This document shows, in pieces, positions 9,835 through 40,692 of a stretch of DNA of 41,455 bases; position 1 is the first letter of the stretch; each line of letters starts with the position of its first letter. The position numbers were made by a program, and so were the translations under genes. The notes under the pieces were generated by a model that searched no databases, was not told where the DNA came from, and saw only the letters and a program-made list of their open reading frames with translations. The DNA lies in contig CAMAWJ010000003.1 of assembly GCA_945861955.1 (NCBI GenBank), forward strand, positions 1 to 41,455, in the 5' to 3' direction. The DNA is from Bifidobacterium breve (GTDB lineage Bacteria > Actinomycetota > Thermoleophilia > Gaiellales > F1-60-MAGs149).

Positions 9835-11028
9835 TCAGACAGTGTCACTCGGTACCTCAAGTGGATCGGCGAGTCGGCTCCGAGGGCGTTCCTGCCAGCC
9901 TGGCTCCAGCGCCTGCTCGCGCACGATCCGGGCACCCACCGCCAGCACCAGACCCACAGCAGTCAGGTTCGTGATCGTGTTGGAGCCCCCGTAGGTCATA
10001 AATGGCAGCGGAATACCCGTCGTCGGTGCAATCCCTAGATTCATCCCGATATTGATGGCGACCTGCGTCAACAGCAGACCGAACACGGCAGCGGCGATGA
10101 ATGACTCCTCGAGGTTGCGTGCCCGCGGGATCATCCGTCCGACCCGCCAGAAGATCAAGAGATACAGCAGCACGACCATTGCCGAGCCAACGAAGCCGCG
10201 ATTCTCTCCCACCACCGCAAAGACGAAGTCCGTGTGATGCTCTGGCAAGAAGCTACCGGCCGTCTGACTGACGCCCCCGCCACGCCCAGCCAGGCCACCC
10301 GACCCGATTGCGATCATCGATTGTTGCGCCTGGTAGGCCGCGTCGCTACCACCCTGAGGATCAAGGAAGGCCGTGATTCGCTCTGCCTGATACGGCCGCA
10401 AAAGCGGGAGTCCGATCGAGGGCAGGATGCCGAGCACGAGCACGACCAACGCGACCGCAATACCACCGAGAACAGCCACACTGCGACCCGGCAGACCCGC
10501 CACGACGAGTACCGTGAGCGTAATCGCGATGTAGACGATCGACGTGCCCAGATCTGGCTGGATAAACACCAACGCGAACGGTGGCAGCATTAGTAGCCCG
10601 GCCCGCGTCACCATGCCCCAGCCACGAATACCGCGACGAACGCAGTCCGCGATGATGATTGACAAGCAGACGATCATCGTCACCTTGCCGAGCTCGGATG
10701 GCTGCAACGTGAAGAATGGCAGCGGAATCCAACGCTGTGAGCCGCGAGCCGCCGAAAAGCCGAGCACGATGATCAGCAGCCCGATCGTGGAGCCGTAGAT
10801 GAACCAGAATAGTCGGCGATAGATGCGGGGGTCGATCACCATCGCGACCGCGGCAAAGCCCAAGCCAGCAACGATGTAGATGATGTGGCGGCGATCGAAG
10901 AAGCCTGGATCGCCGAGTAGATCGTTGACGGTTGCGGCCCGCACTGCACGTTCTCCGATCACGAGCAACAGCAAAACTGCAGCAACCAGGAGCCAGTCGA
11001 CGCGCCGCAAGAGCAAGGTCAGGGTCAT
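9835..11028 (-). CDS. rodA: Rod shape-determining protein RodA (SEDS glycosyltransferase)
   Basis: GSQRWI...LQPSELGK, QPDLGT, AIGSGG, LPEHHTDFVF, TGIPLPFMTYGGS; follows pbp2. Confidence 0.95.
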   Translation of the reverse strand: MTLTLLLRRVDWLLVAAVLLLLVIGERAVRAATVNDLLGDPGFFDRRHIIYIVAGLGFAAVAMVIDPRIYRRLFWFIYGSTIGLLIIVLGFSAARGSQRWIPLPFFTLQPSELGKVTMIVCLSIIIADCVRRGIRGWGMVTRAGLLMLPPFALVFIQPDLGTSIVYIAITLTVLVVAGLPGRSVAVLGGIAVALVVLVLGILPSIGLPLLRPYQAERITAFLDPQGGSDAAYQAQQSMIAIGSGGLAGRGGGVSQTAGSFLPEHHTDFVFAVVGENRGFVGSAMVVLLYLLIFWRVGRMIPRARNLEESFIAAAVFGLLLTQVAINIGMNLGIAPTTGIPLPFMTYGGSNTITNLTAVGLVLAVGARIVREQALEPGWQERPRSRLADPLEVPSDTV

Positions 11029-13295
11029 CCGGTCGACCCTTGCGTCGTCCGGGTCGAATCCTGTGCCTGCACCTCTTGGGCGGGATCGGTGCCGAGGGCA
11101 GGACCAAAGTAGACGCCCGCCTTCTCTGCGCTCGAGATCTGACCAATCGTAGCCTCTTGCACCCCAAAAGCCTGCGCCATCACCTGTCGCACAGCCGGTG
11201 CGGACGTCACACCACCGAAGCCACCTTGCTCGATCACGCAGACCACGACCAGCGTCGGATTCGCCGCGGGTGCGTAGCCAGCGAACCAGGCAAAGTCGCG
11301 CTTGCCAAGCTTTTCGGCTGTGCCCGTCTTACCAGCCACCAGAATCGGAAAGCCCTTGAACGCCGTGTACGCAGTGCCATCCGGATCTTGCGTGACACCT
11401 TCGAGGCCTTTACGGATCGTTGCCAACACGTAGGGATCAACAGCAACTTTTTCTCCGGGCGCCGACTCGAGCTTCTCGCGCATCGTTCCATCCTGCCCAT
11501 AAACTGACGCGCCAACGTGCGGCTGCACCAGCGTCCCACCGTTGGCAATGAGGGCGTAGAGGCGCGCAATTTGGAGCGGGGTCACCTCGAGATCGCCCTG
11601 GCCAATTGACTGCAAAATTGAATCGCCTGACGTCCAACGATTGTGGACGCGATCATCGCCAAAGCGACGCTTTTTATAGGCGGCGTCGGGCACGTTGCCA
11701 GCAGCATCGCCACCGATGTCAATGCCGGTCGAGGCACCAAAGCCAAGCCGCCGCGCCCACAGCGGCTGTGGCTCGAACTGCCCACTCTTCGGCGTCGCTT
11801 CGTACAGGCGCTTCCCGAGTTCGTAAAAATAGGTGTCGCACGAGGCAGTCATGGCCTGCACCAGATTCATCGGCTCGTTGACGCCCGATTCGAAGTTGCG
11901 ATACGTCTGACCGTCAATTGTGACGTCTGGGGTGCACTGGATGACGCTGTCGGACTTGGCGACACGTCCCTCGACAGAGGCAATTGCCGTCACAGGCTTG
12001 AAGGTCGAGCCGGCTGGGTAGAGCCCGGTCATCGCACGATCAAGCAGCGGTGAAGCGTTCGTATTGCGCGCTAGCGAGTCCCAATACTTCTGCCCCCCTG
12101 GCCCAGCCAAGATTGCCGGATCAAAGCCTGGATTCGAGACCATTGCGCGAATCGCACCGGTGCGGGGATCCATCGCAATGATCGCACCACCCTCTGCTGC
12201 TGGGTGCCCATGCGTCTTCGCATACGCGATGGCTTCGCGCAGCGCCATCTCCGCTGCTGACTGGATACCCGCGTCGATCGTCAGGCGAATGTTGTCGCCC
12301 GGGCGAGCAGCCTGCGAGCGCACAATCTCACCCACGGGATCACCAAACGCGTTGACGCGTCGCTGCAACGAGCCACTCGTGCCACGGAGGTAGCGATCAA
12401 AGTATCGTTCCACCCCACGCTGACCAACGAGATCGCCAGGCTCGGCATTGCGGTAGGTGACCTGATCCTTGATCTGTTCTGCGGAAACCTCGGCGAGTTC
12501 GCCCCAGAGGTGCGGAGCCAACGGGTACGTCTTACCCTGCGTGCCGCGAGACGTGCGATATGCGCGCGCAGTGCCCTCGACAATTCGTACTCCCGGGTAC
12601 TGGGCAGCGCGTTCCTTGAGATAGAACAGCACGTTACGGTCGACGTCTTTGGCCAGCACAATCGAATCGAAGGGTGCCCTGATCGCAGCCGTATGAATGG
12701 CATCTTCCAGCTCGACAACCGTAATTCCTGACACCTGTGCGAGCTCGGCGAGCTGCGGCCACTGCTTCGTGCAGCCGGCCCAGGCGCGCACCTGGTCTGT
12801 GCCATCGAGCTCTCTTTGGATGGCCGCAATGCGTGCCACCCGCCGCGCCTTCGAGAACTTGGCTGCCTCAATCAATGCTGCCGAAATCGCAAGTGCTCGC
12901 TCGTTACTCGTGCGACCATCGAAGGGGCCCGCAACATCGCGTCCACACAACGTGAGCAAATCGGGGAACCGCGTCGGATCGATCGCAACCGCGTTCGACG
13001 GTCGACTGCCAACCAACAGCTTGCCCTGCGCATCGAGGATCTGACCACGGGAAGCCGGTACATCGATGCTGCGCAAACCATTCGAGTTAGCCTGGGCCCG
13101 ATACGTCTGAACATCGAGGACCTGCAACGACCACAGGCGCAGAATCAGAATCACCACGATCACGATCGCAACCCCGCCGAGAATCGCGACGCGACGCGAC
13201 GCACCATCGCGATCGAACACTTCGGCGGTCGCGAGCGGCTGCTTCGGTGGCGGTGGCTGAGCGATCGTGGGCTCGTCAACCGACGGCGTACTCAT
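11025..13295 (-). CDS. mrdA: Penicillin-binding protein 2 (class B transpeptidase)
   Basis: N-terminal TM, ASRGQILD, GSTFKP (SxxK), SCDTYFY (SxD), GKTGTA; ATG at 13295 overlaps the mreD stop. Confidence 0.94.
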   Translation of the reverse strand: MSTPSVDEPTIAQPPPPKQPLATAEVFDRDGASRRVAILGGVAIVIVVILILRLWSLQVLDVQTYRAQANSNGLRSIDVPASRGQILDAQGKLLVGSRPSNAVAIDPTRFPDLLTLCGRDVAGPFDGRTSNERALAISAALIEAAKFSKARRVARIAAIQRELDGTDQVRAWAGCTKQWPQLAELAQVSGITVVELEDAIHTAAIRAPFDSIVLAKDVDRNVLFYLKERAAQYPGVRIVEGTARAYRTSRGTQGKTYPLAPHLWGELAEVSAEQIKDQVTYRNAEPGDLVGQRGVERYFDRYLRGTSGSLQRRVNAFGDPVGEIVRSQAARPGDNIRLTIDAGIQSAAEMALREAIAYAKTHGHPAAEGGAIIAMDPRTGAIRAMVSNPGFDPAILAGPGGQKYWDSLARNTNASPLLDRAMTGLYPAGSTFKPVTAIASVEGRVAKSDSVIQCTPDVTIDGQTYRNFESGVNEPMNLVQAMTASCDTYFYELGKRLYEATPKSGQFEPQPLWARRLGFGASTGIDIGGDAAGNVPDAAYKKRRFGDDRVHNRWTSGDSILQSIGQGDLEVTPLQIARLYALIANGGTLVQPHVGASVYGQDGTMREKLESAPGEKVAVDPYVLATIRKGLEGVTQDPDGTAYTAFKGFPILVAGKTGTAEKLGKRDFAWFAGYAPAANPTLVVVCVIEQGGFGGVTSAPAVRQVMAQAFGVQEATIGQISSAEKAGVYFGPALGTDPAQEVQAQDSTRTTQGSTG

Positions 13296-13885
13296 ACGGC
13301 TCCCCCAACCGGGACACCCATCAATCGCCGCAAAACTGGCAGCATGATGATGCCAACGAGAACCGTGAACATCACTCCAGCCGTACCGGCGATGGCAATC
13401 GAACGCCACGCAATCGACTCACTCTGAATGACAGTCGTTACGGCAATTTCGGCAGTCAGACAGAGGACGGCCGCAACCACCAGCACGACCACTGCCATTG
13501 CGAGCGACACGCGTCGTCGCCGTTGGGAAAAGACGCCAACTCCCCATCCAATTGGCGTCAACACCAGTGACGACATGCCGAGCGGAGCCTGCACTGCAAT
13601 GTCGATCAGAACCCCGGCCACGAACCCGACGGCAGCACCCCAGGCGGGACCAAAGCGCAACGCGAAGGCAACAAGCACGACCAGCGTGAAGTTAGGAATC
13701 GCACCCAGAACGCGCGCATCGATCGCCAAGGCAATCTGCAGATAGATCGCAACCACCAGAACAAGCAGCGGAATCACTCGTGTCGAGATCCAGTTCGGCC
13801 GGCGACGTGCGCTGTCTTTGACCACGTGGGCATCAGAAAACTGATCGTCGTCTGCGGCCTCGAACGTCGCCTCTGTCGCACTCAC
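13292..13885 (-). CDS. mreD: Rod shape-determining protein MreD
   Basis: Hydrophobic protein with GAIPNFTLV and GAAVGFVAGVLID; lies between mreC and mrdA. Confidence 0.88.
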   Translation of the reverse strand: MSATEATFEAADDDQFSDAHVVKDSARRRPNWISTRVIPLLVLVVAIYLQIALAIDARVLGAIPNFTLVVLVAFALRFGPAWGAAVGFVAGVLIDIAVQAPLGMSSLVLTPIGWGVGVFSQRRRRVSLAMAVVVLVVAAVLCLTAEIAVTTVIQSESIAWRSIAIAGTAGVMFTVLVGIIMLPVLRRLMGVPVGGAV

Positions 13886-14784
13886 GAGTCACCACCCGCA
13901 CCCGTCAAAATGACGACGTTCGCAAACGATCCGAGTTCGACCCACGGCACGACCAACACGCTCTTATAGGTGTTTGCATCGCTCTGCCGCGCCTCGCTCA
14001 CGACTCCAATCGGCAGACCACGCGGATAGGCGGATCCAAGTTTGCCCGAGGGGTCGAGGAAGCCACTGGTGATCACACGATCACCCGGTTTCACAACGCT
14101 TGAGCCCCGCACGAATCCGAGCACCAGCACGGAGGGGTCGGCTGCGCTCGGCTGCAAGATACCGTCTGCACCTCGCCGCCCCGAGACGGTCGCACCAACC
14201 GCCACGCTGGCATTCGAGAGTAGCGAAATCACGGCTGTCTCCGGCGTCGTCCGCTCGACGCGACCAATCAGTGCAGCACCACCAATGTCCGCCGACTGCG
14301 CCACACCGACCAACACGGGATCCCCGACCTTGACGCCGACAGCGTCGCCCGCGTCGACGACGACACTGCTCGACGTCAGCGATGGCGAGCGAGCAACGAC
14401 GCGTGCCGCGCGCGGCTGATAATTCTTGATCTGCGGGAAAGCCGGCGAGCGAACGTAGTCGAGTAGCCCTCGCAGCTCCTCACCATCCTGCTGGTTGACC
14501 TCTGCTTTTGCGAGGTCGGATCGCAGCACGGCATTCTCCTGTGCCAATTGGTCGCGCTCTTGCCGTGCAGTACGAACGTCGCCAAACCAGCCGATCAGAT
14601 CTCGCACCGGCTGCGTTGCGCGCTGGGCAAACTCCTGAATGGCGACCGACCGATCTGAGGATTGCGACTGCGCCGACTCGACCTGCGCCTGCGCGCGCAT
14701 CGAGAACGTGACGAGCACGATCGCAAGCACGACGAGGACAAACGGAATGATTCGGCGAGCGAGGCGGGTGCGGGCGGTGGGCAT
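13882..14784 (-). CDS. mreC: Rod shape-determining protein MreC
   Basis: N-terminal TM, coiled coil (LAQENAVLR), ARVVARSP, GDRVITSG...YPRGLPIGVV. Confidence 0.92.
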   Translation of the reverse strand: MPTARTRLARRIIPFVLVVLAIVLVTFSMRAQAQVESAQSQSSDRSVAIQEFAQRATQPVRDLIGWFGDVRTARQERDQLAQENAVLRSDLAKAEVNQQDGEELRGLLDYVRSPAFPQIKNYQPRAARVVARSPSLTSSSVVVDAGDAVGVKVGDPVLVGVAQSADIGGAALIGRVERTTPETAVISLLSNASVAVGATVSGRRGADGILQPSAADPSVLVLGFVRGSSVVKPGDRVITSGFLDPSGKLGSAYPRGLPIGVVSEARQSDANTYKSVLVVPWVELGSFANVVILTGAGGDS

Positions 14785-15249: not shown

Positions 15250-16659
15250 CTACGCCGTTGGTGCAGACGGTTGAGCTCGCGCAAAGGCAATCGCTTCGGC
15301 CTCGTTCGAGATGGTGCCGGCTGCCTGCTCCTCCGCGATCTGTGCAAGCAGGGCTCCGATGACAGGACCCGGCTCACAGCCGAGCACCTCGGCGAGTGTA
15401 TCGCCGCGAAGCAGTGGTGCGGCGACAGGAAGAGCAAGGGCCTGCGCCATCTCGATAGCGAGCTGCTCATGACGACGGATCCAGCGCTGGCGAGCACGGG
15501 TCCCACGCGTCGACCAACGGTCTGCCAACGACACAACCACGCTCGCGATTGCCCAGGGATCGGTCGCGACGCGATAGCGGTGCACAGCACGCGCGTCCAA
15601 CACGCCATCTGGGACGAGAAAGCCAAGCCGTAAATGCTCACGCACGAGCACCGCCACACACTTTTGCATCGCGCTGCTGTACCGCAAGCGTTCGAGAATC
15701 GCAGTGGCTAACTCGGCACCTTGCTGGGCATGCCCCGGGAAGCCAATGTGGCCGCTCTCGAACTCTACTCGGGTATCGGGCTTAGCGATGTCGTGCAACA
15801 ACGCGCCCCAGCGCACGGCCAACGCAACATCGCAGTCGGCATCGAGGAGCTCCGAAAGTGCCGTCGCCACGGCCGGGGCAGCCTCGCCGAACGCGAACTC
15901 TGGTTGCTCGATCAGATCGGTCGTCGCATCGAGCACCTGCAGCGTGTGATCCAGCACATCAAGATGGTGATAACGGTTTTGCTCGACAGCGGCCAAGGCC
16001 TTGACCTCAGGCAGCACAACGCCGAGAAGTCCCAACTGATCGAGAAATCGGAGCCCATCGACGGGATCGCGCGACAGAAGAATTCGCTCGAGCTCCGCCC
16101 GCTGCCGCTCTCCCGCCGGCTCGGCCGCGAGGGCCGCGTCGCGTTGGGCAAGCGCCACGGTTTCGGGTGCAACCGCAAGGTCCAGTTCGACGGACAATCG
16201 GACGAGGCGCAGCAGACGTAACGGGTCATCACGAAACGACGAATCCGCAACGACGCGAAGGACGCGGTCCTCGAGATCGTCAAGAGCTCCTGGGACCGCT
16301 AACGTCTTGCCGTCTGCGACCCGCACTGCGATGGCGTTGATCGTGAGGTCGCGCCGCAAGAGGTCGGCCGTGATGCCATCCGGCGCACCCGTGATGTCGA
16401 CCTCGTGGTCCTCGCCAACGACACGCCACGCGCCATGTCGCTCCGAGAGGGGAAACACGGGCGCACCGACTGCCTTCGAGTAGCAGCGCGCTGTATGTTC
16501 GGCGTCACCCGTGGTGACCAGATCCCAGTCGGACAGGGGGCGATCCAGCAACACGTCGCGTACTGCGCCGCCCACGAGCCAGAGGTCACCATCGCCTGCA
16601 AATGCTTCCTGCAGCGGAATCAGGGCGCGCGCCAGCCGCGGATCAACTGCGTGAGCCAC
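15250..16659 (-). CDS. Class II tRNA nucleotidyltransferase (CCA/CC-adding family) with HD domain
   Basis: LVGGAVRD...DWD, RRDLTINA, DDPLRLLR, ER, HHLDVLDHT, LLHDIAKP; GTG at 16659 with AGGAG RBS. Confidence 0.88.
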   Translation of the reverse strand: MAHAVDPRLARALIPLQEAFAGDGDLWLVGGAVRDVLLDRPLSDWDLVTTGDAEHTARCYSKAVGAPVFPLSERHGAWRVVGEDHEVDITGAPDGITADLLRRDLTINAIAVRVADGKTLAVPGALDDLEDRVLRVVADSSFRDDPLRLLRLVRLSVELDLAVAPETVALAQRDAALAAEPAGERQRAELERILLSRDPVDGLRFLDQLGLLGVVLPEVKALAAVEQNRYHHLDVLDHTLQVLDATTDLIEQPEFAFGEAAPAVATALSELLDADCDVALAVRWGALLHDIAKPDTRVEFESGHIGFPGHAQQGAELATAILERLRYSSAMQKCVAVLVREHLRLGFLVPDGVLDARAVHRYRVATDPWAIASVVVSLADRWSTRGTRARQRWIRRHEQLAIEMAQALALPVAAPLLRGDTLAEVLGCEPGPVIGALLAQIAEEQAAGTISNEAEAIAFARAQPSAPTA

Positions 16660-17752
16660 AACCACTCCTGACTGTCGCTGCGCTCGAACGTGGCCGGACA
16701 CCACAGGTAATCTCGTACGGCACGGTGCCGACGTGGCGTGCGAGCTCTTCGGCCGAGACGACGTCATCGCCACCGACACCAAGCAGCACGACCTCGTCGC
16801 CCTCCTTTACCTCAAGCTCATCTGGCAGCACCACAGCGAGCTGATCCATCGATACGGTCGCGGCCACGCTGCAGCGCTGCCCGTGGATCAGCACCTCGCC
16901 AAGACCCGAAAGTCGGCGGGGGTAGCCATCGGCATAGCCAATCGGAACGAGGGCGACGCGACACGGCTTAGCAGCAACGAAACGGCGACCGTATCCCGTC
17001 GATTCGCCCGCTGCAAGCACGCGTAGGCTGCGGACCGTGCTGGTCCAGCGCATGACCGGCACGAGCCCATGATCTGCTCCGGAAACACCGAGCGGATCAA
17101 TCCCGTACACCGCTATTCCTGGCCGTACCGCATCGAAAGCGAGCTCGGGATAGCGGAGCGTCGCCGCGGAGTTCGAGAGATGCCGTGGACACGGTGGAAA
17201 ACCAGCGGCGATGGCACGAAAGGCCTCCGCCTGCTGATCGACAAAGTCGCGATCGGCATCATCGGCCGTGGCGAGATGACTCATCAGGCCAGCCAACCGC
17301 TCGGGACGTGGCCCACTCACGATCTGATCGGCAACCGCCAACGCCTCATCCGCGCTCAGGCCCCACCGCCCCATCCCCGTGTCGACCTTCACGTGCACAT
17401 CAACCTCGTGGCGGTCATGCAAACGATCCCAGCCCTCGAGCGTCGAGACCGTCACTGCACAGCCAACCTCGACGACCGCAGTTTCCTCTCCCTCTGTCAG
17501 CGGCGACAACACGAGCAACGGCACGGTCGGTAGCTCGACGCGCACGGCACGCGCTTCGCCAAGCGTCGCCGTGCAGAGCTTCGTGGCACCCGCGGCGATC
17601 GCAGCGTGGGCGACGTCAATCGCGCCGTGTCCATACGCATTTGCTTTGACCACCGCCCACACCTCAGCGCCACCGGCGGCATCCAACAGGCGTTGGACGT
17701 TGGCCGAAACAGCAGCCAGATCGATCTCGACGAGGCTGCGATGACGATGCAC
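16643..17752 (-). CDS. alr: Alanine racemase
   Basis: AVVKANAYGHG (PLP lysine), KVDTGMGRWG, GYG, GYADG, VSMDQ. Confidence 0.96.
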   Translation of the reverse strand: MHRHRSLVEIDLAAVSANVQRLLDAAGGAEVWAVVKANAYGHGAIDVAHAAIAAGATKLCTATLGEARAVRVELPTVPLLVLSPLTEGEETAVVEVGCAVTVSTLEGWDRLHDRHEVDVHVKVDTGMGRWGLSADEALAVADQIVSGPRPERLAGLMSHLATADDADRDFVDQQAEAFRAIAAGFPPCPRHLSNSAATLRYPELAFDAVRPGIAVYGIDPLGVSGADHGLVPVMRWTSTVRSLRVLAAGESTGYGRRFVAAKPCRVALVPIGYADGYPRRLSGLGEVLIHGQRCSVAATVSMDQLAVVLPDELEVKEGDEVVLLGVGGDDVVSAEELARHVGTVPYEITCGVRPRSSAATVRSGCGSRS

Positions 17753-32535: not shown

Positions 32536-33090
32536 TCACGTCGTCGCCGACGCGAGGATTTCGGCGTTCGTCAGCGATGTTGCGCCGTACATCTGCTCGG
32601 CATACGCGAGCCCCGTCGCATTGTCTTCTGGTGTAAAGGCGGTAATGCCTTCCGTGGCCAAGACCACGCGATAGCCCGCGATAAAGGCATCGCCCGCGGT
32701 GTGCTGCACACAGATGTGCGCGTGCTGGCCCGTCACGATCACGGTCTCGACGCCACGCTGCCGCAGATACATATCGAGGCCCGTCTGATGAAAACCTGAG
32801 TAGTAGCGCTTGCCGAACTCGACATCTCCAGGCTCGGGCGCCAATTCCGGGATGACCTGCGCACCGGGCGTTCCCGCCAGTGCGTGCGGCCCCCACAGCT
32901 GTTCTTCAGCGTCGCCAGGGAGGTGCGCGTCGTTGACGTAACAGATCGGCCATCCGCGCTCGCGTGCGCCGTGGAGCAGCGCCGCAAGCGGCGCGATGAT
33001 TGCCTCTGAAGGCGGGTTGGCAAGCGCGCCTGTGACGAAGTCGACGAGCATGTCGGCGACGATCACTGCGGGTCGAGATAGGGGTTCCAT
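32536..33090 (-). CDS. Isochorismatase-family cysteine hydrolase
   Basis: Catalytic triad D (VADMLVDF), K (GKRYYSGF), C (HICVQHT). Confidence 0.9.
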   Translation of the reverse strand: MEPLSRPAVIVADMLVDFVTGALANPPSEAIIAPLAALLHGARERGWPICYVNDAHLPGDAEEQLWGPHALAGTPGAQVIPELAPEPGDVEFGKRYYSGFHQTGLDMYLRQRGVETVIVTGQHAHICVQHTAGDAFIAGYRVVLATEGITAFTPEDNATGLAYAEQMYGATSLTNAEILASATT

Positions 33091-33198
33091 GACACAAAAC
33101 CGTATCAATCCGTACCCGTTTGGACTATCTGAGATGAATCTGCGGATCACGTGTGGCACCATGAGCACAGTTGTTCCCGACCACGAGGTTGTCTCCGC

Positions 33199-34368
33199 AT
33201 GCAGATGCGCACTACTCACGCACGCCGAATTCTGATCACGCTCGCCGCATGCGTTGCCCTGCTCGCCATCCCCGCACTGGCCAGTGCGAACAAGAACCTC
33301 CGTACTGGCTTTCTTGATAACTCCTACGTGATATCCGACCCGGCGGGCTTCTGGTCGGATGCAGTTGACCTGAATGTGGGCTTCATGCGCTGGGATGTTC
33401 AGTGGGTACACATGGCAGTCACCAAGCCTACGAACCCCCGCAACGTCGAAGATCCAGCCTACAGCTGGGGCGCAACCGACAATTTCGTCAGGCAGGCCGC
33501 TGAGCATGGCCTGCAAGACCGCATCATGTTTACCGTCTGGGCGACACCAAAGTGGGCCTCCTCGTTGAACGCCTCGGGCACGACTGCGGATATGCCAAGG
33601 ATCGACGCCTGGCGCGCCTTCGTGCACGTTGTCGCCACGCGCTACTCGGGCAACTACACCCCGCCCGGTGCTACCACCCCGCTGCCGCGCGTTATCTCGT
33701 ATGAGACTTGGAACGAGCCCAACGCCTCGTTTGCTCTGCGACCTCAGATCGTCAATGGCAAGGCCGTCTCGCCCGGCAACTACGTCAAGCTGCTGAACGC
33801 GTTGAAGTCGGAGGTCACGAAGGTCGTCTCTTTCAAGCCAACCTTCGTCGCAGGTGCGCTCTACAAGCAGGGTGGACGGCGTAGCGTCACACCGATCAAC
33901 TTTATACGTGGAATGGCGGCCGCGAAAGCGAAGTTTGACGTGCTATCGATGCACCCTTACAACAACACGCCGCGGCTCGGTCTCAAGGATGGGCTCGACC
34001 AGAGCAAGACGAATCCGAAGTTCATCGGCATCGGTAACTTCGATACCTTCATCACGTTGTCCAACCAGATCTTTGGCAAGAAGCGCCCGATCTGGGTGAC
34101 AGAGTTTGGTTGGCAGACGCCGAGAGACGGCAAGAACCAGTACGTCGCCACCGTCCAGCAACAGGCGCAATTCGCCTACGAGTCCGTGCAGCGACTCAAG
34201 CAACTGCCTCAGGTTGAGCGGGCTGCGTGGTTCCTCCTCCGCGACGATCCGCCCGGGAATGGCACGCGCTACACCACCGGCTTGCGTACCTTCGATGGCA
34301 CCAAGAAGCCCTCCTTTAACACGTGGAAGTCAGCAACCACGAAACTGCGGCGCTCGCCGATCAGGTAG
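33199..34368 (+). CDS. Secreted clan GH-A glycoside hydrolase (GH5/GH39-like TIM barrel)
   Basis: Signal peptide (RRILITLAACVALLAIPALASA), WNEPN acid/base, SMHPY, IWVTEFGW nucleophile, C-terminal GL...KP. Confidence 0.85.
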   Translation: MQMRTTHARRILITLAACVALLAIPALASANKNLRTGFLDNSYVISDPAGFWSDAVDLNVGFMRWDVQWVHMAVTKPTNPRNVEDPAYSWGATDNFVRQAAEHGLQDRIMFTVWATPKWASSLNASGTTADMPRIDAWRAFVHVVATRYSGNYTPPGATTPLPRVISYETWNEPNASFALRPQIVNGKAVSPGNYVKLLNALKSEVTKVVSFKPTFVAGALYKQGGRRSVTPINFIRGMAAAKAKFDVLSMHPYNNTPRLGLKDGLDQSKTNPKFIGIGNFDTFITLSNQIFGKKRPIWVTEFGWQTPRDGKNQYVATVQQQAQFAYESVQRLKQLPQVERAAWFLLRDDPPGNGTRYTTGLRTFDGTKKPSFNTWKSATTKLRRSPIR

Positions 34369-34371
34369 CTC

Positions 34372-34417
34372 GTTGTTGGTGGTGCGGCGGATCTATTTCG
34401 GCCGCACCACCAACAAC
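34372..34417 (+). terminator. 17-bp stem hairpin after the glycoside hydrolase
   Basis: GTTGTTGGTGGTGCGGC ... GCCGCACCACCAACAAC, starting 4 nt after the stop; no U-tract. Confidence 0.6.
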
Positions 34418-34459
34418 TAAACCCCATATTCGCTGGGCACGGCTCAGTCGCTAGGGGCA

Positions 34460-34511
34460 GTCTCTACGCTATGTCTCTATGCAGTGTCTCTTTGCAGTGT
34501 CTCTATGCTGT
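34460..34511 (+). repeat. Four tandem 13-bp repeats (consensus GTCTCTATGCAGT)
   Basis: gtctctacgctat gtctctatgcagt gtctctttgcagt gtctctatgctgt. Confidence 0.85.
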
Positions 34512-34636
34512 GGGCGACCGCGAATGCTGACCATCGATGCGCCGCAGCAACAGCAATCCGAGCTCAGCGATGGGCTCCAGACCCTCACTCGTCGTCTTGC
34601 GTTGCACCAGGACACCGCCGTCGCGTTGGCCGTTCG

Positions 34637-35827
34637 ATGCTAGCCACCTTCACGGTTCTCGTCGTGCTGACGACCGTCGCAAGCCTGATCTACAACGCGA
34701 TCCCGAGCCAAGTCACCTGGCTGCGACGCGGGCTGATTCTGCTCGTCTCAGCGACGGTCATTTACACGTTCAACCCCCGCACGCTCGCAATTGCCATTCT
34801 GATCACGGTTTTTGCCTTCGGTGTCTACATCCTCGCGCGCCGATTTCCTTCGCTCTCATGGATCCCTTGGCTGGTGATGGCCCCACTCGTACTGAACGCC
34901 ATCAGCGAGGTCGCCTTCGACCGTAACTGGGGCGATCTGCTGCCCTTCCCAACTGGATCTCCCGTCAGCCCGATGATCACGCAACTGGCCACGCTCGGGC
35001 TCTCGTTCTACTCCTTCAAGCTCTACATTTCGATCAAGGAGGGTCTTCATGCCGATCGACTACGCGTGCGCGACATGTTGACGGGAGTGCTCTTCTTTCC
35101 CAGTTTCCCAATTGGGCCGATCGATGGTGCCGCCGCCTTCAACGACGCGGCGATTCGTCGCCCTGCGAACCCTCGTCTATGGCTGCTCGGACTTGCCCGC
35201 ATCGGCATGGGTGGTGCGAAGGTCTACCTCGTCGCCGACTGGCTCACGAACGCACTGCCGGCCGCCCTCGGCTTCCACTCGCTCGAGTTTGTACAGACCC
35301 ATGTCTTTACGAGCCCCGGGCGAGCGCTCACCTTCATGCTGCTGAGTTTTTTGCTTCTCTACCTCAACTTCTCAGGCTTCTCGGACATCGCCATTGGCGC
35401 CGGCATGATGTTCAATCTACGCCTGACCGAGAATTTCCACTACCCGCTCCTGAGCAGCTCGATCCAAAACTTCTGGCAGCGCTGGAACCTCTCACTAGCC
35501 TCGTTTATTACAACGTACCTATTTAAGCCACTGCTGCGCACGACGGGCCGCCCGGTGGTGTCGCTGATCATCGCTTTCACGTTGATCGGACTGTGGCATC
35601 GCGTGTCGCTGGGCTACCTCTTTTGGGGCGTTGCTCACGGCACGGCACTCGGCGTGGCGCTGTGGTGGCGGAAGCGCGGTGGCAGGCCACTGCCGATTCC
35701 CAACAGCGTCCGGCAACTCGGTGGAATCGCACTGACCCTGCTCTTTGTCTCGTTCGTTTCGACGATCGCAAACATGCCGAATTGGCGTCGCACCCAACAG
35801 TTCTTGGAGGCCCTCGTTGGACAGTGA
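34637..35827 (+). CDS. MBOAT family O-acyltransferase (DltB/AlgI-like)
   Basis: LGLSFYSF, FFPSFPIGPI, YLNFSGFSDIAIG, ENFHYP...FWQRWNLSL, IGLWH; multiple TM segments. Confidence 0.93.
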   Translation: MLATFTVLVVLTTVASLIYNAIPSQVTWLRRGLILLVSATVIYTFNPRTLAIAILITVFAFGVYILARRFPSLSWIPWLVMAPLVLNAISEVAFDRNWGDLLPFPTGSPVSPMITQLATLGLSFYSFKLYISIKEGLHADRLRVRDMLTGVLFFPSFPIGPIDGAAAFNDAAIRRPANPRLWLLGLARIGMGGAKVYLVADWLTNALPAALGFHSLEFVQTHVFTSPGRALTFMLLSFLLLYLNFSGFSDIAIGAGMMFNLRLTENFHYPLLSSSIQNFWQRWNLSLASFITTYLFKPLLRTTGRPVVSLIIAFTLIGLWHRVSLGYLFWGVAHGTALGVALWWRKRGGRPLPIPNSVRQLGGIALTLLFVSFVSTIANMPNWRRTQQFLEALVGQ

Positions 35828-35978
35828 CCACAGCCAGCAGCCGCTTCACGAGCGTGCGTGGGCGTTCGCGCAGGAACACGCATTGTGGATCCAGATAGCG
35901 ATTGGCATCATCGCGTGGCTCGCGATCGCATTGGCCTTCCCACTCACCTCCACAACACCGATCTATGCCAGATACTGA
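35817..35978 (+). CDS. 53-aa single-TM DltX-like microprotein
   Basis: GGAGG-6 nt-TTG start; MDSDHSQQPLHERAWAFAQEHALWIQIAIGIIAWLAIALAFPLTSTTPIYARY; overlaps both neighbours; C-terminal xIYxx-aromatic motif. Confidence 0.75.
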   Translation: MDSDHSQQPLHERAWAFAQEHALWIQIAIGIIAWLAIALAFPLTSTTPIYARY

Positions 35979-37065
35979 GCCTATGCCTACAGACTCTTCG
36001 TCGTCGCACGGACGCTATCGCCTGACGCGCACCAACATCGTCTTTGGTGTCTTCGGGCTGTTCTCTGTGGTGCTCGTGGCACTGCTGCTGTGGTGGTCTG
36101 ACACGGCACCAGCACGCTACGCCGTCATGCCCTGCCAGTACAACGCGATCTTCGAAACTGCTGGTCCAGTCGGTGCCGTCGTGCTCGGCTCGTCGCGTGT
36201 GCAGCACGCTGTCTCGTCCCGCATCCTCTCCGCCGATTTGGCGGCTGCTGGTCGGCCAGACAACGTGATCAATCTCGCGCGGGGTGGTCGGGGACCAGAG
36301 CAGCTCTATCAAATGCTGCTCGACGTCGATCGGCAGCGCGGGCTGCAGGGCCCAATCATCGTCGAGTACTCGCCGCAGGACACGGCCTTTTGGCGCAACA
36401 CGCCGCTGTACTACCAGTACTACCCTGGCTTCGGTGCGAACGCCGAGTTTACGTCACTGACCGAGGATTGGCGTGCAAAACCACGCGAGCCTGCCTACAG
36501 CCGTCTCCGCGATCTATTCGGGTTGCTCGAGTATCGGCTCGATGCAGCGATCGAGAACAGCACCAACGGTAAGGCCAGCCGTAATCGTGTGCTGGCTACC
36601 GCAGGGCGGAACCACGACACTACGGTCTCGTGTTTGACCCGCCAAAAAAAAGGCCAAACTGCAGGACAACGCAATCAGCTTCGCCGTGTCTATGCCAAAA
36701 CAGTTCGCGTCTACGGGACAGACCCCACACCTGGCGACGTCCCGCCGGTGGCGAGCCAACTGCAGCTGATCAATCAGGATGCTCAGAATCACTACCTCGA
36801 TCTGATCATCTCGCTTGCCAAGCGGCGCGGCGTCCCCGTCTACCCCATCGTCGTTCCAGGATTCTTCGAGCCGGCTCCGTCGCCTGAAACGTTCACAGAG
36901 TTCGAAGCACGCTTCGGGATCCCCCTGCTCTATCCGGATTCCCAAGAGCTCGCTGCCTACGGCGACACGACACGATTCTTGGACGCCTTTCACCTCAACC
37001 TGACCGGCAGCGAGGCCTACACCGATTGGCTCGCCAGCATCATCGTGCAGGCACCCACCAGCTAG
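35965..37065 (+). CDS. Membrane-anchored SGNH/DltD-like acyltransferase
   Basis: N-terminal TM; VLGSSR nucleophile block (36181-36198); VINLARGG; FLDAFHLN (DxxH, 36982-36993). Start 35965 or 35983. Confidence 0.8.
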   Translation: MPDTEPMPTDSSSSHGRYRLTRTNIVFGVFGLFSVVLVALLLWWSDTAPARYAVMPCQYNAIFETAGPVGAVVLGSSRVQHAVSSRILSADLAAAGRPDNVINLARGGRGPEQLYQMLLDVDRQRGLQGPIIVEYSPQDTAFWRNTPLYYQYYPGFGANAEFTSLTEDWRAKPREPAYSRLRDLFGLLEYRLDAAIENSTNGKASRNRVLATAGRNHDTTVSCLTRQKKGQTAGQRNQLRRVYAKTVRVYGTDPTPGDVPPVASQLQLINQDAQNHYLDLIISLAKRRGVPVYPIVVPGFFEPAPSPETFTEFEARFGIPLLYPDSQELAAYGDTTRFLDAFHLNLTGSEAYTDWLASIIVQAPTS

Positions 37066-37137
37066 GCCTACCCGTCAGGCTGGGTCGAACTGGTTCCTTG
37101 TCGAACGCCCAGCGCTGAACGTCAAACAGCGGTAAGG

Positions 37138-38643
37138 CTATGGACAGCCGGTCGCAGTACCGGCCGTGGCAGCCAAGACGGTCGCTGGACTCAAGGTAGG
37201 GAGCGACGCTGGATCCGTCCCGACAGGTACGACGACTTGCACGGTCGCCGCAGGGAGCGTGTCTGCCACTCGGTTGACGACGAGACAGGGCGCCGATGGA
37301 AGCATGTCGAGTGCCAGCAGCGTCCCCAATGGCGCAGTCGCTTTCGGTGCGGTCACTGTCTTCCATGGCACGAACTCGCCCTTCTTGGAGTAGCCGAACC
37401 GATCCTGGTACTTGCGGTAGCGCACTCCTACCCCAGCCGACCAGGTGCCGTTTGGCTTCTTGTAGGTTGGGCGTCCGCGCTTCGTCCGCCAGCCACCATC
37501 GCGCCAGGCCGGCGCCCCCTTCGACCAAGTCCCGTCTGCGCGTTGCATGGTCTTCGTACCGGCTGCATTGACCCACCAGCCACCACCGAGCGCCACAATC
37601 GTCTTGCCTTTTCGCGTCACGCCGACCGAGCGTGCCACGACACCGTTCGTGCCGTAGAGGAAATCCTCTTGAAGGTTCTGGTTCTTGAGGCCGGCCACAG
37701 CCGATTTTGCTGCGCTGGCGGTCTGCTCACCCGCTGGTATCAGGTAGGCCAGGTTGAGGTTGCCAAGCGGACCTGGCGCGAGCGCGACTGGCGGCGGACA
37801 GTCGACGCCCTTCGGAACGAGCGTGAGGTCTCCCTTCGCTGGCAGTTTGAGTGTCTTATCGGGCGGGATCAGCACGTCGATGTGTTTACCGATGATCGCA
37901 CCACCTGTGTCATCCGCCGAGAAGCACCCCTTCGACGGCGTGTCCTTGAGCGCCTCGATGTAGATCGTGGTGCCCTTCGGAATCACCGACCGGTCCGTCG
38001 CAATCGAACGCCACGGCGTCACATTCGTACCAATACCAATGCCAAACGTGTCAGGGTAGCCACGGAAGTTGAGATCGTCGGGCTGCCCGAGAGCGACCGC
38101 TGCACGGTTGCAGACAACCGTGTACGCGGCCGGGTTGGTGGGCGGTGGGTTCTGCCAGGTGCCATCATTGTTGGCGAAGGTGGGTCGTTTGTTGTCGGTG
38201 GTCGTCGGAATCGGCACGCCGGCTGCGTCGATTGCCCACCAGACGCAGCCGCCAGGGCGCGAATAGGGCGAACCGTTGGTAAAGCCACTCGCTGCGGTTC
38301 TCGTCTCGGCACCCTCCTTGTTGACCCAGGGGCCAGCCCCGCTGCGCCAGTGCAACAGCACCCCGTCATCCCCGGTGCCCGTGCCTTGCATCGCGATGCC
38401 CCGCGCGGAGTAAAGAAAGTCTTCCCGGTAGGCGACCTTCAACCCGGGCGCGACCATTTTCTTGGCGGTAAACCAACCCTCGGGCGCAAACCAGTAGTAG
38501 GTGATCCAGTATGAGCCGAGTGCTTGAGGACGTGGCGGCATCGTCTGCGCCTCAGTGCTGTGCGTGCCAATCAGCGAGACGCCGCCGGCAAGCAGACACG
38601 CCGCAACCAGCAGTCGACCCGCGATACCGGCGTTCAATTGCAT
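37138..38643 (-). CDS. Secreted 3D-domain (MltA-like) protein with internal duplication
   Basis: Signal peptide; SIATDRSVIPKGT..YIE...ADDTGGAIIGKHIDV is the 3D signature. Confidence 0.8.
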   Translation of the reverse strand: MQLNAGIAGRLLVAACLLAGGVSLIGTHSTEAQTMPPRPQALGSYWITYYWFAPEGWFTAKKMVAPGLKVAYREDFLYSARGIAMQGTGTGDDGVLLHWRSGAGPWVNKEGAETRTAASGFTNGSPYSRPGGCVWWAIDAAGVPIPTTTDNKRPTFANNDGTWQNPPPTNPAAYTVVCNRAAVALGQPDDLNFRGYPDTFGIGIGTNVTPWRSIATDRSVIPKGTTIYIEALKDTPSKGCFSADDTGGAIIGKHIDVLIPPDKTLKLPAKGDLTLVPKGVDCPPPVALAPGPLGNLNLAYLIPAGEQTASAAKSAVAGLKNQNLQEDFLYGTNGVVARSVGVTRKGKTIVALGGGWWVNAAGTKTMQRADGTWSKGAPAWRDGGWRTKRGRPTYKKPNGTWSAGVGVRYRKYQDRFGYSKKGEFVPWKTVTAPKATAPLGTLLALDMLPSAPCLVVNRVADTLPAATVQVVVPVGTDPASLPTLSPATVLAATAGTATGCP

Positions 38644-38752
38644 CGGCTGACGGGTTCGCTTTGGGGCCACGCACCCCTCTTTTTCGATCCTGCGCACATC
38701 CCTCATAGTGCCCTAGGTTCAGGAAGAGGGGCCCTGCCGTCACACTTTCGTT

Positions 38753-39430
38753 GTGACCCTGCTCGCTGCCATCGCCATTGCTCTCGGCTGCATCATCGCG
38801 GCCGAGCCCCGGTTGCTTGGTCGCCGCTGGCCGCCCACCCTGCTGGCTGCGGGTGCTGGCATCGGGATTGCCTACGTGGTCATCCATCTGCTGCCCGAGA
38901 TTGCGATCGGCGCCGAGATTGTCCAGCGCTCCACCGAAGGCCGGCTCCCCTACGCCGAGCTGCACGCCTATCTGTTGGTTCTGATTGGCATCCTCGGCAC
39001 CTTGTTTCTGCGTGGGCTCCAGAGCGGCCTCCACGGCATGACGCCTCATCCGCGGGTGCGGATTATTCAACCCGCACTCTCGGCGCTGATCGTTGGCTAC
39101 CTCCTCGCGGTGCGCGACGATACCGAGGTCGGCTCGATCCTGCTCTTCACACTCGCCATCGGCCTCCATATCGCGCTCAATGCGCACGGCCTAGCGGTCA
39201 AGCTCAACTCGCCGCAGGGCGGGCTCGTGCTGGCCGGTGCGATCGCGGTTGGATATGCCCTTGGTGTCGGCTGGGAGGCGCCAGAAGTAGTCGTGGCTGG
39301 GCTTGTCGCACTGCTCGCCGGTGGTGTCATGACCCGCACGATCCACGAGGTGCTCGATGAGGAAAGCCACCTCGTCGCGCTGACCGTGGGTGCCACACTC
39401 GAGGCAGCACTGCTGCTCGGTGTGACCTAA
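38753..39430 (+). CDS. ZIP-like membrane protein (possible divalent metal transporter)
   Basis: GIGIAYVVIHLLPE motif, 7-8 TM segments, His in mid-TM segments, LLAGG..near the C-terminus. Confidence 0.6.
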   Translation: MTLLAAIAIALGCIIAAEPRLLGRRWPPTLLAAGAGIGIAYVVIHLLPEIAIGAEIVQRSTEGRLPYAELHAYLLVLIGILGTLFLRGLQSGLHGMTPHPRVRIIQPALSALIVGYLLAVRDDTEVGSILLFTLAIGLHIALNAHGLAVKLNSPQGGLVLAGAIAVGYALGVGWEAPEVVVAGLVALLAGGVMTRTIHEVLDEESHLVALTVGATLEAALLLGVT

Positions 39431-40692
39431 CGGACGAGCAGCATTGCTTCCTGGAGCGTCGCGAAAGGAGCGGCCACAGGCGGCACGCCGCTGCACTGCG
39501 GCGTCGGAGTGGCTCCATCGAAGAGTGCTCGCAGCCACGGGACGATCGTTGGTGCAGCCGTCGTGCCGGCGGCAACATGACCAACCCCACCCAGCCACAG
39601 CATCGTCAGGTTCGACCCGGCCGCACACCACGTCTCTTGAAGTGCGGCATTCGACTCGGGCGGAATCACCGTGTCGGCAGTGCCCTGAGCAATCAGGAGC
39701 GGGAGCGTCGCCGGCAGCGGCTTCGGTGTCTGTTCGGCGGCAGCCTTGGCGATGCGTGGTTCGTTGATGGGGTTGCCATTGAAGTACGGAATCCCAACGG
39801 CGGCGGCGGCGACGCCGAGCAGCAACGGCACTGGCACGCCCTCACCGAGACAGGCATCGGCTACCTCTGCCGTCCAGCGCTGGCCCTCGCTGGTAATCGC
39901 TGCGTCGATGTCGAGAGATGGGTAATTGGCTGTCCAAGACTGAGCAACTTCGGCACCTACTCCCCAACCAACGCCCGTGTTCCATTGCTTGCTGATGATC
40001 ATCGGGAGATCGGCAGCTGGGGCGGCAGCAGCAACGCCAAGCAGCGTACGTTCCGGCATTTCCTGGGCGGCAAGTTGGCCCGTCCAGAGCGCTGAATGCC
40101 CGCCCTGGGAGTGCCCGAAGACAACCCATTCCTGACTCGGGTCGGCTCCAGGAACCTGCTCGAGTGCCCGCACAGAGTTGACGATGTCAAGCGACTCGGC
40201 CTGGCCGATCAAGAACAGGTTGGGTCCGACCGTCCCAATGCCGGCGTAGTCCGTGGCCACGACGACGAAACCAGAGGCAATTGCCTGCGCGTACCACGCA
40301 TTGGGCCCAATCGGGTCGGTCCGACGCGAGGGCGCACAGCCTCGTCCCTGCCCGATCGTGCCGTGCGCATAGGCAAGCACAGGGCGACCCGCTACCGGGG
40401 CGGGAGCGATCGGTACGAAGACCATGGCTCCGGAGACCGTGGCGGTACCGTCTGGTCGCTCGGTGCGGTAGAGGACACGGAACGAGGACGCACCCACGAC
40501 GGGCGCCGTTGCGAGCGTTTCGACGCGGAAGACGGTGCCCGGCTTAGCCGCGTCGACTCCAGCGGGCGTGGCGTAGAAGGCGTCGAGAGCATTCTGCTGA
40601 CGAGAGTCCGCGACACGATGGGCGAGCGTGGACAAGCCGATTGCCAGCGCGATAACACCGATCGCGACGAGGATGATCTTTTTGAGCGACAC
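39427..40692 (-). CDS. Secretory lipase (LIP family alpha/beta hydrolase)
   Basis: N-terminal signal/TM, AHGT.G...CAPS, ATDYAG, GHSQGG, QGTADTV, catalytic His in GVGH. Confidence 0.88.
   Translation of the reverse strand: MSLKKIILVAIGVIALAIGLSTLAHRVADSRQQNALDAFYATPAGVDAAKPGTVFRVETLATAPVVGASSFRVLYRTERPDGTATVSGAMVFVPIAPAPVAGRPVLAYAHGTIGQGRGCAPSRRTDPIGPNAWYAQAIASGFVVVATDYAGIGTVGPNLFLIGQAESLDIVNSVRALEQVPGADPSQEWVVFGHSQGGHSALWTGQLAAQEMPERTLLGVAAAAPAADLPMIISKQWNTGVGWGVGAEVAQSWTANYPSLDIDAAITSEGQRWTAEVADACLGEGVPVPLLLGVAAAAVGIPYFNGNPINEPRIAKAAAEQTPKPLPATLPLLIAQGTADTVIPPESNAALQETWCAAGSNLTMLWLGGVGHVAAGTTAAPTIVPWLRALFDGATPTPQCSGVPPVAAPFATLQEAMLLVR

Follow-up and report, generated by a model that had tools for sequence, protein, structure and literature searches.

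A Dlt-like locus for an MBOAT, a microprotein and an SGNH protein in a freshwater Gaiellales genome, and its carrier-linked relatives

Three overlapping genes for a predicted acyl-transfer relay

Here, we examine three overlapping genes on the + strand of a 41,455-nucleotide (nt) stretch of DNA, contig CAMAWJ010000003.1, which at its full length is referred to as the window. The stretch belongs to a metagenome-assembled genome (MAG) of 1.1 Mb that is 68.7% complete. The genes occupy positions 34637-37065 and encode, in this order, a short acyltransferase of the MBOAT family, a free microprotein with one transmembrane helix and a tyrosine motif near its end, and a membrane-anchored SGNH protein that resembles DltD. 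A previous interpretation made from the letters of the DNA alone (the sequence-only reading) had given all three open reading frames (ORFs) at these positions, had likened them to DltB, DltX and DltD in the order B-X-D, and had suspected an actinobacterial host. The positions, the gene order, the Dlt architecture and the host were all borne out. Close relatives of the locus are found in freshwater MAGs named Gaiellales, Thermoleophilia or Actinomycetota, and the guanine plus cytosine content across the window is 0.59-0.66. The features of the three genes are as follows, with residues of the SGNH protein numbered according to its 360-amino-acid (aa) form.

34637..35827, + strand: short MBOAT acyltransferase, 396 aa from ATG (Pfam MBOAT, E = 7.8e-13)
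35597..35599, + strand: codon of His321, the proposed catalytic His of the MBOAT, in a W-H pair that is invariant in sequence alignments
35805..35809, + strand: GGAGG ribosome-binding site, 7 nt before the TTG start of the microprotein, from sequence reading
35817..35978, + strand: DltX-like microprotein, 53 aa, one transmembrane helix, C-terminus TTPIYARY, TTG start and TGA stop
35964..35966, + strand: codon of Tyr50, fourth residue from the C-terminus and proposed acyl-shuttle Tyr, an invariant column
35965..37065, + strand: transmembrane-anchored DltD-like SGNH protein, 366 aa (ATG at 35965) or 360 aa (ATG at 35983)
36193..36195, + strand: codon of Ser71 in G69-S70-S71-R72, the proposed nucleophile (block I)
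36982..36993, + strand: D334-A-F-H337, Asp and His of the proposed triad (block V)

The MBOAT and microprotein genes overlap by 11 nt (MBOAT stop at 35825-35827, TTG at 35817). The microprotein stop at 35976-35978 in turn overlaps the third gene by 14 nt if that gene starts with the ATG at 35965; a second in-frame ATG is found at 35983. The three genes are predicted to form one operon, an arrangement that we regard as fairly probable. A promoter scan of positions 33000-37300, which is uninformative for this organism, gave no sigma-70-like site.

A longer form of the MBOAT, from a GTG at 34484, is possible, but alignments with homologues begin at residue 1 of the ATG version. The protein ends in FLEALVGQ and has no tyrosine motif fused to it, as had been seen from its sequence, and the histidine earlier singled out at 35597 is H321 of a W-H pair (W320 and H321 are invariant in 21/21 aligned sequences). 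With the NCBIfam DltB model (TIGR04091), the MBOAT scores 95.2 bits where the cut-off is 375, and six long MBOATs (470-482 aa) score 145-226 bits, above the MBOAT of the window. Since the Gaiellales MBOATs fall below the long MBOATs tested, a match to this model means only that a protein is an MBOAT, and the DltB-model score was rejected as a measure of affinity. When a profile of the clade to which the protein belongs (see below) was compared with the sequences of the PDB, DltB was the sole match (E = 1.9e-27).

The microprotein is a real gene and not a chance ORF. This is evident from the GGAGG site, from a drift that is mostly synonymous, from conservation in two phyla and from the invariance of its Tyr. 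Relative to two relatives with ~96% identity, the codon changes are 7 and 8 synonymous against 2 and 2 non-synonymous (L030, being out of register, was left out of this comparison). For the genus itself, the 20 best-scoring loci from a search with the third protein were used, and in 16 of these the MBOAT gene is followed first by a small ORF ending in P-[IV]-Y-A-[NRG]-[YF] and then by the SGNH gene. No such frame exists in the remaining four, L010-L013, where the SGNH gene begins right after the MBOAT stop. A second set comprises 16 proteobacterial loci with a short MBOAT (31-40% identical) from Actibacterium, Hyphomicrobium, Halioglobus/Haliea, Geminicoccaceae, Caulobacterales and others. In 15 of them, the MBOAT gene has directly downstream a small frame that ends in P/V-x-Y-[AQE]-x-[YF], while no small ORF with a Tyr-motif ending was found after the MBOAT of L073. 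The peptide is conserved next to short MBOATs in both sets.

Alignment of 26 microproteins from the two phyla left Tyr as the sole invariant column, always fourth from the end (26/26), with P at -6, A at -3 and a Trp in the transmembrane helix each at least 90% conserved. No Pfam family matched the microprotein at E<=0.1. In the window, the single-helix product of 53 aa ends in PIYARY, and the view that the motif sits on a free peptide as in Dlt was therefore correct; the hexapeptide would face outside. Measured against the published motif of DltX, the microprotein has its Tyr at -4 and an aromatic side chain at -1, and it has Pro in place of Phe at -6. In the FXYXXF acyl-shuttle motif of DltX and PatA, the Tyr has the same offset from the end, according to the accessible part of the source (PMC12148441).

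The third protein has a basic N-terminus, one transmembrane helix and then a domain of ~320 aa. It was matched by no Pfam or NCBIfam model at E<=0.1, the DltD equivalog included. Structure prediction with AlphaFold2 from 30 homologues gave a model with a mean pLDDT of 87.9, whose best ten Foldseek matches in the PDB are all DltD (3bma, 7dxm, 6pfx, 6o93; E from 9e-5 to 9e-4, TM-score 0.31-0.36); generic SGNH esterases rank after the DltD chains. VIA-align gave Z-scores of 9.3-9.9 over 257-260 residues for DltD (root-mean-square deviation 5.8-6.5), of 10-11.5 over 158-200 residues for many small hydrolases of the SGNH superfamily, and of 9.7-9.8 over 177-178 residues for PatB. The SGNH fold of this predicted structure is secure, and the case for a specific likeness to DltD is made by the alignment length together with the Foldseek ranking. 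In keeping with the anchored protein with a GSS...DxxH signature that had been read from the sequence, GSS is G69-S70-S71 and DAFH is D334-x-x-H337. G69, S71, R72, D334 and H337 are invariant in 30/30 homologues, and among 67 distant representatives of the family the Ser and His are invariant and the Asp is at least 90% conserved. The family comprises 1216, 284 and 42 representative clusters at E<=1e-3, 1e-10 and 1e-30, respectively, among 1.84 billion, and Pfam offered no convincing model for it (five single-member matches, E 0.0018-0.0076).

With these predictions in hand, the MBOAT, the SGNH protein and the microprotein were co-folded, with the microprotein scored as the partner in three runs and with three controls. 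The ipSAE scores were 0.78, 0.77 and 0.75 (median 0.77), and the best control reached 0.00. The ipSAE mark used is reached by 116 of 157 solved complexes and by 2 of 215 mismatched pairs, although these counts are only roughly valid for a prediction with its own alignments and three chains. The pLDDT of the partner was at least 73 and contacts agreed to at least 91% between runs. In the predicted complex, the microprotein helix (residues 22-45) rests on MBOAT residues 180-201 and 240-248, and the contacted stretch includes the invariant G185, R188, G192 and K195. The tail of the microprotein (residues 47-49) contacts MBOAT residues 158-159, beside the conserved F-x-x-G-P-I-D loop, as well as residues 191 and 194-195 of the SGNH protein. 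The co-fold supports a position of the microprotein on the MBOAT.

Carrier-linked relatives and the short-MBOAT clade

The sequence-only reading had drawn attention to the lack of dltA and dltC, and this has held for the window and for the 68.7%-complete assembly. The DltA model (TIGR01734, cut-off 559.85) gave at best 49.8 bits in the genome itself and 62.1 bits in five relatives of 76-95% completeness; in a control search, the cut-off was passed in 2 of 14 control genomes. The DltC model (TIGR01688) had no match at E<=1 in the genome of the window. However, the core version of the cassette in the same genus does possess a gene for a carrier resembling acyl carrier protein (ACP). Weak matches to the DltC model in five relatives all lie just upstream of a paralogous MBOAT gene. 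The product is an acidic protein of 81 aa with the motif LLDSLDSM (PP-binding, E = 5.8e-4), to which generic ACP models and DltC models match equally weakly; on the DltC models it scores 14-21 bits, with cut-offs of 52 (TIGR01688: 52.35) and 68. This carrier is present as a single copy in 22 of the 26 other genomes of the genus, is 83-100% conserved, and was not found in the assembly of the window. It lies on the same strand as, and ~1.4-1.7 kb from, an SGNH gene of type B (see below) in 19 of the 22 genomes, the other three not being checkable.

These carrier-bearing loci, termed type B, are arranged as LysR regulator, P211, carrier, MBOAT, microprotein and one or two SGNH genes, and their microproteins end in ...PIYANY or ...PVYANY. 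P211 (~211-219 aa; L027:7234-7869, L072:2941-3600 and homologues) is always found near the carrier gene, in two phyla. It has no Pfam or NCBIfam match and is predicted to form a double hot-dog (pLDDT 92.6), with dehydratase domains of polyketide synthases and TesB-type thioesterases as its best matches (E from 3e-6). The proteobacterial loci are ordered P211, FabH-like, carrier, SGNH, MBOAT and microprotein. A gene for the FabH-like enzyme (ACP_syn_III, 1e-26 to 7e-30) occurs in 8 of them and the carrier in 12 of the 16; in L068, L069, L071 and L078 no carrier was found by tblastn, ORF reading not having been applied to those loci. In the gammaproteobacterial L062, L063 and L064, two of which bear the name Halioglobus, the carrier comes first and is followed by SGNH, MBOAT and microprotein. 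Their carriers match PP-binding at 2.5e-5 to 1.5e-4, above the Pfam cut-off, and in L062 and L063 a sulfotransferase gene lies upstream. Type B is regarded as the core form of the cassette in the genus, and the core form of the clade would be fed by a dedicated ACP-like carrier.

Several loci depart from this layout. In the alphaproteobacterial L078 (L078:4136-6804), the genes after the short MBOAT and the microprotein encode a methyltransferase and a protein of 559 aa that matches FkbH_N weakly (0.0013, below cut-off); this might offer another route for loading a carrier. A third, more divergent SGNH paralogue (~32% identical) shares its contig with the type B SGNH gene, a few kb away and in opposite orientation, at L024:6417-7500 (-) and on G002:C304, G010:C53, G011:C66, G012:C107 and G023:C19. 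In L024 it is placed just upstream of the P211 gene, and it sits within spuriously long frames of 372-884 aa. Apparent fusion ORFs of 707-715 aa that contain this third copy were rejected, their N-terminal part being P211 read antisense in a high-GC genome, and an LAL_C2 match within them (4.4e-4, below cut-off) was not taken as real.

Outside of these groups, the SGNH profile gave two weak matches (~1e-6) in 400 other Actinomycetota genomes. As neither lies beside an MBOAT gene, they were not accepted as the same system. No match was found in 16 genomes from four other families of the same order. The patchy distribution between Gaiellales and Proteobacteria suggests that the clade has spread by horizontal transfer.

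The position of these MBOATs was determined with a tree of 66 sequences from a quick IQ-TREE search. In it, 31 short MBOATs form one clade (SH-aLRT support 96), made up of type B, of the carrier-less Gaiellales types A and A' described below, of the proteobacterial rows and of two rows without a locus (P0056 and P0060). For the rows that do have a locus, a free microprotein is encoded beside each MBOAT except in two A' rows and L073. A separate clade (96) holds 23 MBOATs with a fused motif, and eight Chloroflexota-type MBOATs without the motif form a third (99). Types A, A' and B of the Gaiellales group together (97), next to proteobacterial loci that bear the carrier. The only DltB reference, which is an orphan plasmid gene from Bacillus mycoides on a long branch, falls on the far side of the tree. 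This separation argues against nesting of the clade within DltB, but it is not a strong test because only one DltB reference was included. Together with the 95 bits on the DltB model (cut-off 375) and the missing match to the DltD model, it agrees with the earlier expectation that the proteins would not nest inside ordinary Dlt.

Among the more distant loci (L074-L107), 25 of 34 have an MBOAT with a fused F-x-Y-x-x-F end. A clade of MBOATs of ~470-530 aa that lack a fused Tyr motif and end just after the core (...LFG..) was also observed (L082, L089, L094, L099, L105, L107, P0061 and P0068), the six named rows being Anaerolineae/Chloroflexota. No Tyr-ended small ORF is found within 700 nt downstream of them, and they may represent another split system with its microprotein encoded elsewhere.

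Proposed donor, acceptor and mechanism of the window copy

The copy in the window is of type A, with MBOAT, microprotein and SGNH protein and with no carrier or P211 at the locus. Type A or A' loci occur in 10 of the genus genomes searched, 8 of which also hold the carrier; the two without it, G000 (the genome of the window) and its close relative G001, are the least complete (68.7% and 61%). Both types of locus are present in the nearest relatives, G018 and G020. In the type A' loci (L010-L013, L035:5994-8205 and L036), an MBOAT gene is followed by an SGNH gene with neither a free microprotein nor a fused motif, and such pairs presumably borrow a microprotein in trans. In L035, the peptide-less A' pair lies directly upstream of a type B carrier cassette, which suggests that extra MBOAT/SGNH pairs can share a carrier and a microprotein. 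As types A, A' and B form one clade beside the carrier-bearing proteobacterial loci, linkage to the carrier would seem to be ancestral and type A to be a derived duplicate, in effect a duplicated acceptor-side module that is no longer linked to the carrier genes. Of the 56 columns with at least 87% conservation in 23 carrier-linked MBOATs, type A retains 53, and W320 and H321 are kept in all of these 23 and in the 6 MBOATs of types A and A'. The His of the F-W-Q-R-W-H motif, invariant in 23/23 carrier-linked MBOATs, is Asn in the window (N284, codon 35486-35488), and this replacement is found in 3/4 type A and 1/2 A' MBOATs. The type A MBOAT of the long-read MAG G018 (L006 = G018:C4:54464-55649) is in two frames, covering residues 1-106 and 101-396, which reflects either a frameshift or an assembly indel.

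Two further features lie directly upstream of the operon.

33151..34368, + strand: secreted glycoside hydrolase (Pfam Glyco_hydro_cc, 2.1e-10)
34372..34417, + strand: inverted repeat of 20 nt, 95% complementary, with a 6-nt loop, directly 3' of the hydrolase stop

No U-tract follows the inverted repeat, which probably splits the hydrolase transcript from the three-gene operon. The hydrolase has weak PDB matches to GH128 (0.0021) and PslG (0.003). A homologue adjoins the type A or A' loci L010, L011, L012, L029 and L031 and was not found in the available sequence of L030 and L032-L036. The hydrolase possibly acts on the same glycan as the operon, and its place in the system is uncertain. The proteobacterial loci carry genes for a sulfotransferase or a GT4 glycosyltransferase. 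The GH128/PslG-like neighbour and these proteobacterial genes point to a polysaccharide as the acceptor, rather than teichoic acid or peptidoglycan.

Elsewhere in the window, a secreted protein of 522 aa with a 3D domain (9.9e-13; MltA/RlpA-like) is encoded at 37138-38706 (-), convergent with the operon, and has weak matches to wall-binding Ent proteins. It is followed by a small membrane protein with a weak ZIP-like match (38753-39430, +) and a secretory lipase of the LIP family (1.6e-23; 39427-40692, -), both downstream of the operon. A cluster for MreC, a PBP2-type transpeptidase and RodA (FTSW_RODA_SPOVE) lies at 9835-14784 (-), and thus the Gaiellales lineage has elongasome genes. An alanine racemase gene is located at 16643-17752.

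As we infer it for the window copy, from the donor through every chemical step to the acyl group and the acceptor, the relay would proceed as follows. The MBOAT, with His321, would take an acyl group from a cytoplasmic thioester donor and pass it through its membrane tunnel onto Tyr50 of the bound microprotein. The flexible C-terminal tail of the microprotein would then carry the acyl-Tyr to Ser71 of the DltD-like SGNH protein, which would in turn attach the acyl moiety to a hydroxyl group on an extracytoplasmic glycan. The window copy would draw on the same carrier as type B, in trans, and decorate a second glycan. The relay from His321 over Tyr50 and Ser71 to a glycan is, by analogy, very likely, given the architecture, the invariant residues, the folds, the co-fold and the chemistry of Dlt and PatAB as far as the available text describes it (PMC12148441). 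That the donor is a remote ACP-like carrier is somewhat favoured. The sequence-only reading had proposed a different donor, either acyl-CoA (coenzyme A) or a remote carrier; between the two the remote carrier is preferred over acyl-CoA because the core version of the cassette and 12/16 proteobacterial loci have a carrier. In view of the FabH-like and double hot-dog companions, the group transferred is probably not D-alanine but a short acyl, either fatty or beta-functionalised. Taken as a whole, a Tyr-shuttle relay of Dlt architecture, fed by a carrier in trans and belonging to a clade other than Dlt, is on balance the explanation that we would adopt.

A number of observations weigh against this explanation. 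In the predicted ternary complex, the tail of the microprotein touches both the MBOAT and the SGNH protein; His321 is absent from the confident contacts of the Tyr tail. The good co-fold scores may also reflect likeness to solved DltB structures. The Z-scores of VIA-align fail to separate DltD from generic SGNH hydrolases, and the tree came from a quick search with one long-branched DltB reference that is itself an orphan plasmid gene. The Gaiellales loci show no evident loader for their carrier, with no FabH-like gene within ~6 kb. No carrier, P211, type B MBOAT or type B SGNH gene was found in the assembly of the window or in G001, and both genomes may be streamlined (~1.6 Mb as calculated from completeness), in which case their lineage may truly lack the carrier. 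Lastly, the change from RW-H to RW-N in the motif may mark a changed donor or chemistry.

It is also conceivable that the relay is the same but independent of a carrier, with the type A MBOAT using acyl-CoA (e.g., acetyl-CoA) directly as PatA and AlgI do. We hold this to be rather unlikely. Such a donor would account for the carrier, P211 and type B genes missing from the assembly of the window and from G001, and for the type A and A' loci with an available upstream flank (L029, L031 and L034), none of which has a carrier gene, L035 being the exception. The RW-N change in 3/4 type A and 1/2 A' MBOATs would likewise fit, and MBOAT/SGNH pathways other than Dlt are reported to use acyl-CoA in the accessible part of PMC12148441. 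Yet a free microprotein goes together with a carrier donor in the core form of the clade and in every characterised case within that same text, type A retains 53 of the 56 clade-conserved columns, and the genomes without a carrier are only 61% and 68.7% complete while G018 and G020, nearest to them, each contain the two types of locus. A duplicate of the type B system that is decaying and no longer functions would be in line with an accessory paralogue that is found in a minority of the genus genomes, with sister A' loci that have lost the microprotein gene, with the two-frame MBOAT of G018 and with the H-to-N change at a conserved motif. We consider decay very improbable, since all three frames in the window are intact and keep the catalytic His, Tyr, Ser, Asp and His, the GGAGG site is kept, and codon changes in the microprotein are 7-8 synonymous against 2 non-synonymous. 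In addition, the type A SGNH proteins of three relatives are 88-93% identical despite drift in their DNA.

Other readings concern the chemistry at the two ends of the pathway. Ordinary D-alanylation by Dlt, with dltA and dltC in the unassembled part of the genome, could draw on an assembly of only 68.7% completeness, on DltB as the sole match of the MBOAT in NCBIfam and among PDB sequences, and on the DltD chains that head the Foldseek matches of the third protein. It is largely refuted and retains hardly any credibility, as no DltA exceeds the cut-off in this genome or five relatives, the carrier of the relatives falls below the DltC cut-offs, the MBOAT reaches 95 bits on the DltB model and so lies under the long MBOATs tested, the tree sets the clade away from the DltB reference, and no NCBIfam model matches the third protein. 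The companions of the carrier, moreover, are a hot-dog protein and a FabH-like enzyme and not an adenylating enzyme. Peptidoglycan as the acceptor, acetylated by a split system like PatA/PatB, is improbable. PatB is indeed among the structural matches (Z 9.7-9.8 over 177-178 residues), but it does not stand above other SGNH matches and DltD aligns over more residues. The convergent gene for a 3D-domain wall protein just downstream and the MreC/PBP2/RodA cluster of the same window would suit such an acceptor, whereas the GH128/PslG-like hydrolase next to several type A/A' loci suggests a glycan other than peptidoglycan, as do the sulfotransferase or GT4 glycosyltransferase genes of the proteobacterial loci. 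No Ape-type esterase was seen.

Comparison with known acylation systems

The logic by which an acyl group moves from His to Tyr to Ser and then to a polymer has been proposed for all bacterial MBOAT-SGNH pairs, and within the text available for that proposal only Dlt uses a carrier protein together with a free DltX microprotein (PMC12148441). The other bacterial MBOAT/SGNH pathways are described there, again as far as the accessible portions go, as using acyl-CoA and a fused motif, with no carrier or DltX-like microprotein (PMC12148441; JBC 2025). Our full-text literature search returned no DltX-like microprotein outside of Dlt, although the founding paper of 2023 may mention others. The mechanism of DltX is reportedly owed to Schultz et al. 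in that year.

The clade described here, with at least 31 MBOATs in the tree and an SGNH partner family of 284 clusters at E<=1e-10 that has no Pfam model, contradicts this dichotomy of carrier and microprotein as the accessible text of PMC12148441 draws it. It points to acylations of the envelope or of exopolysaccharides in abundant freshwater Actinomycetota and in marine Proteobacteria. Greater interest attaches to the entire clade than to the copy in the window, which is its carrier-less offshoot. One may go further and combine two claims: that the clade is a second class of carrier-fed MBOAT/microprotein/SGNH relay, for a group other than D-alanine and with ACP, double hot-dog protein and often a FabH-like loader, and that the window copy has switched to acyl-CoA, as marked by RW-N, and acylates a different glycan, which the adjacent hydrolase processes. 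The combination is doubtful, with both parts having to hold. If it were true, it would break the rule that a free microprotein means a carrier donor and a fused motif means acyl-CoA. Because the full cassette is carried by cultured strains, Actibacterium sp. 188UL27-1 and A. ureilyticum LS-811, the question can be tested directly.

The closest counterpart is the Dlt system of Bacillota (DltX, DltA, DltB, DltC and DltD), which attaches D-alanine to teichoic acid. Shared with it are a short MBOAT without a fused motif, a free single-helix microprotein with a Tyr four residues from the C-terminus, and an SGNH protein that has an N-terminal anchor and DltD as its best Foldseek matches. For the core paralogue alone, a small carrier gene of the phosphopantetheine type next to the MBOAT gene adds to the likeness. 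In contrast to Dlt, no DltA was found, the carrier remains below the DltC cut-offs, and the carrier is accompanied by a double hot-dog protein, joined in 8 proteobacterial loci by a FabH-like enzyme. Neither the MBOAT nor the SGNH protein passes its equivalog model (DltB and DltD, respectively), and the MBOATs form a separate clade in the tree. The motif is P-x-Y-A-x-[YF] instead of F-x-Y-x-x-F, and the genes follow the order (carrier-)B-X-D in the Gaiellales loci and carrier-D-B-X in the proteobacterial ones. Unlike Dlt, the copy in the window is without any carrier gene.

With PatA/PatB, which O-acetylate peptidoglycan in Gram-negative bacteria, and AlgI/AlgJ/AlgF/AlgX, which O-acetylate alginate, the locus has in common an MBOAT and an SGNH partner. 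MBOATs of the AlgI/PatA type, however, have ~450-520 aa, bear the Tyr hexapeptide fused on two extra transmembrane helices and use an acyl-CoA donor, whereas the MBOAT of the window has 396 aa with the motif on a separate gene, and the MBOATs with a fused motif stand in a clade of their own. In the AT3-SGNH fusions of the OatA type, the membrane domain is AT3 and not MBOAT and the whole is a single polypeptide. Nevertheless, these fusions resemble the proposed relay in that an extracytoplasmic SGNH transferase is fed via an acyl-Tyr from a membrane acyltransferase.

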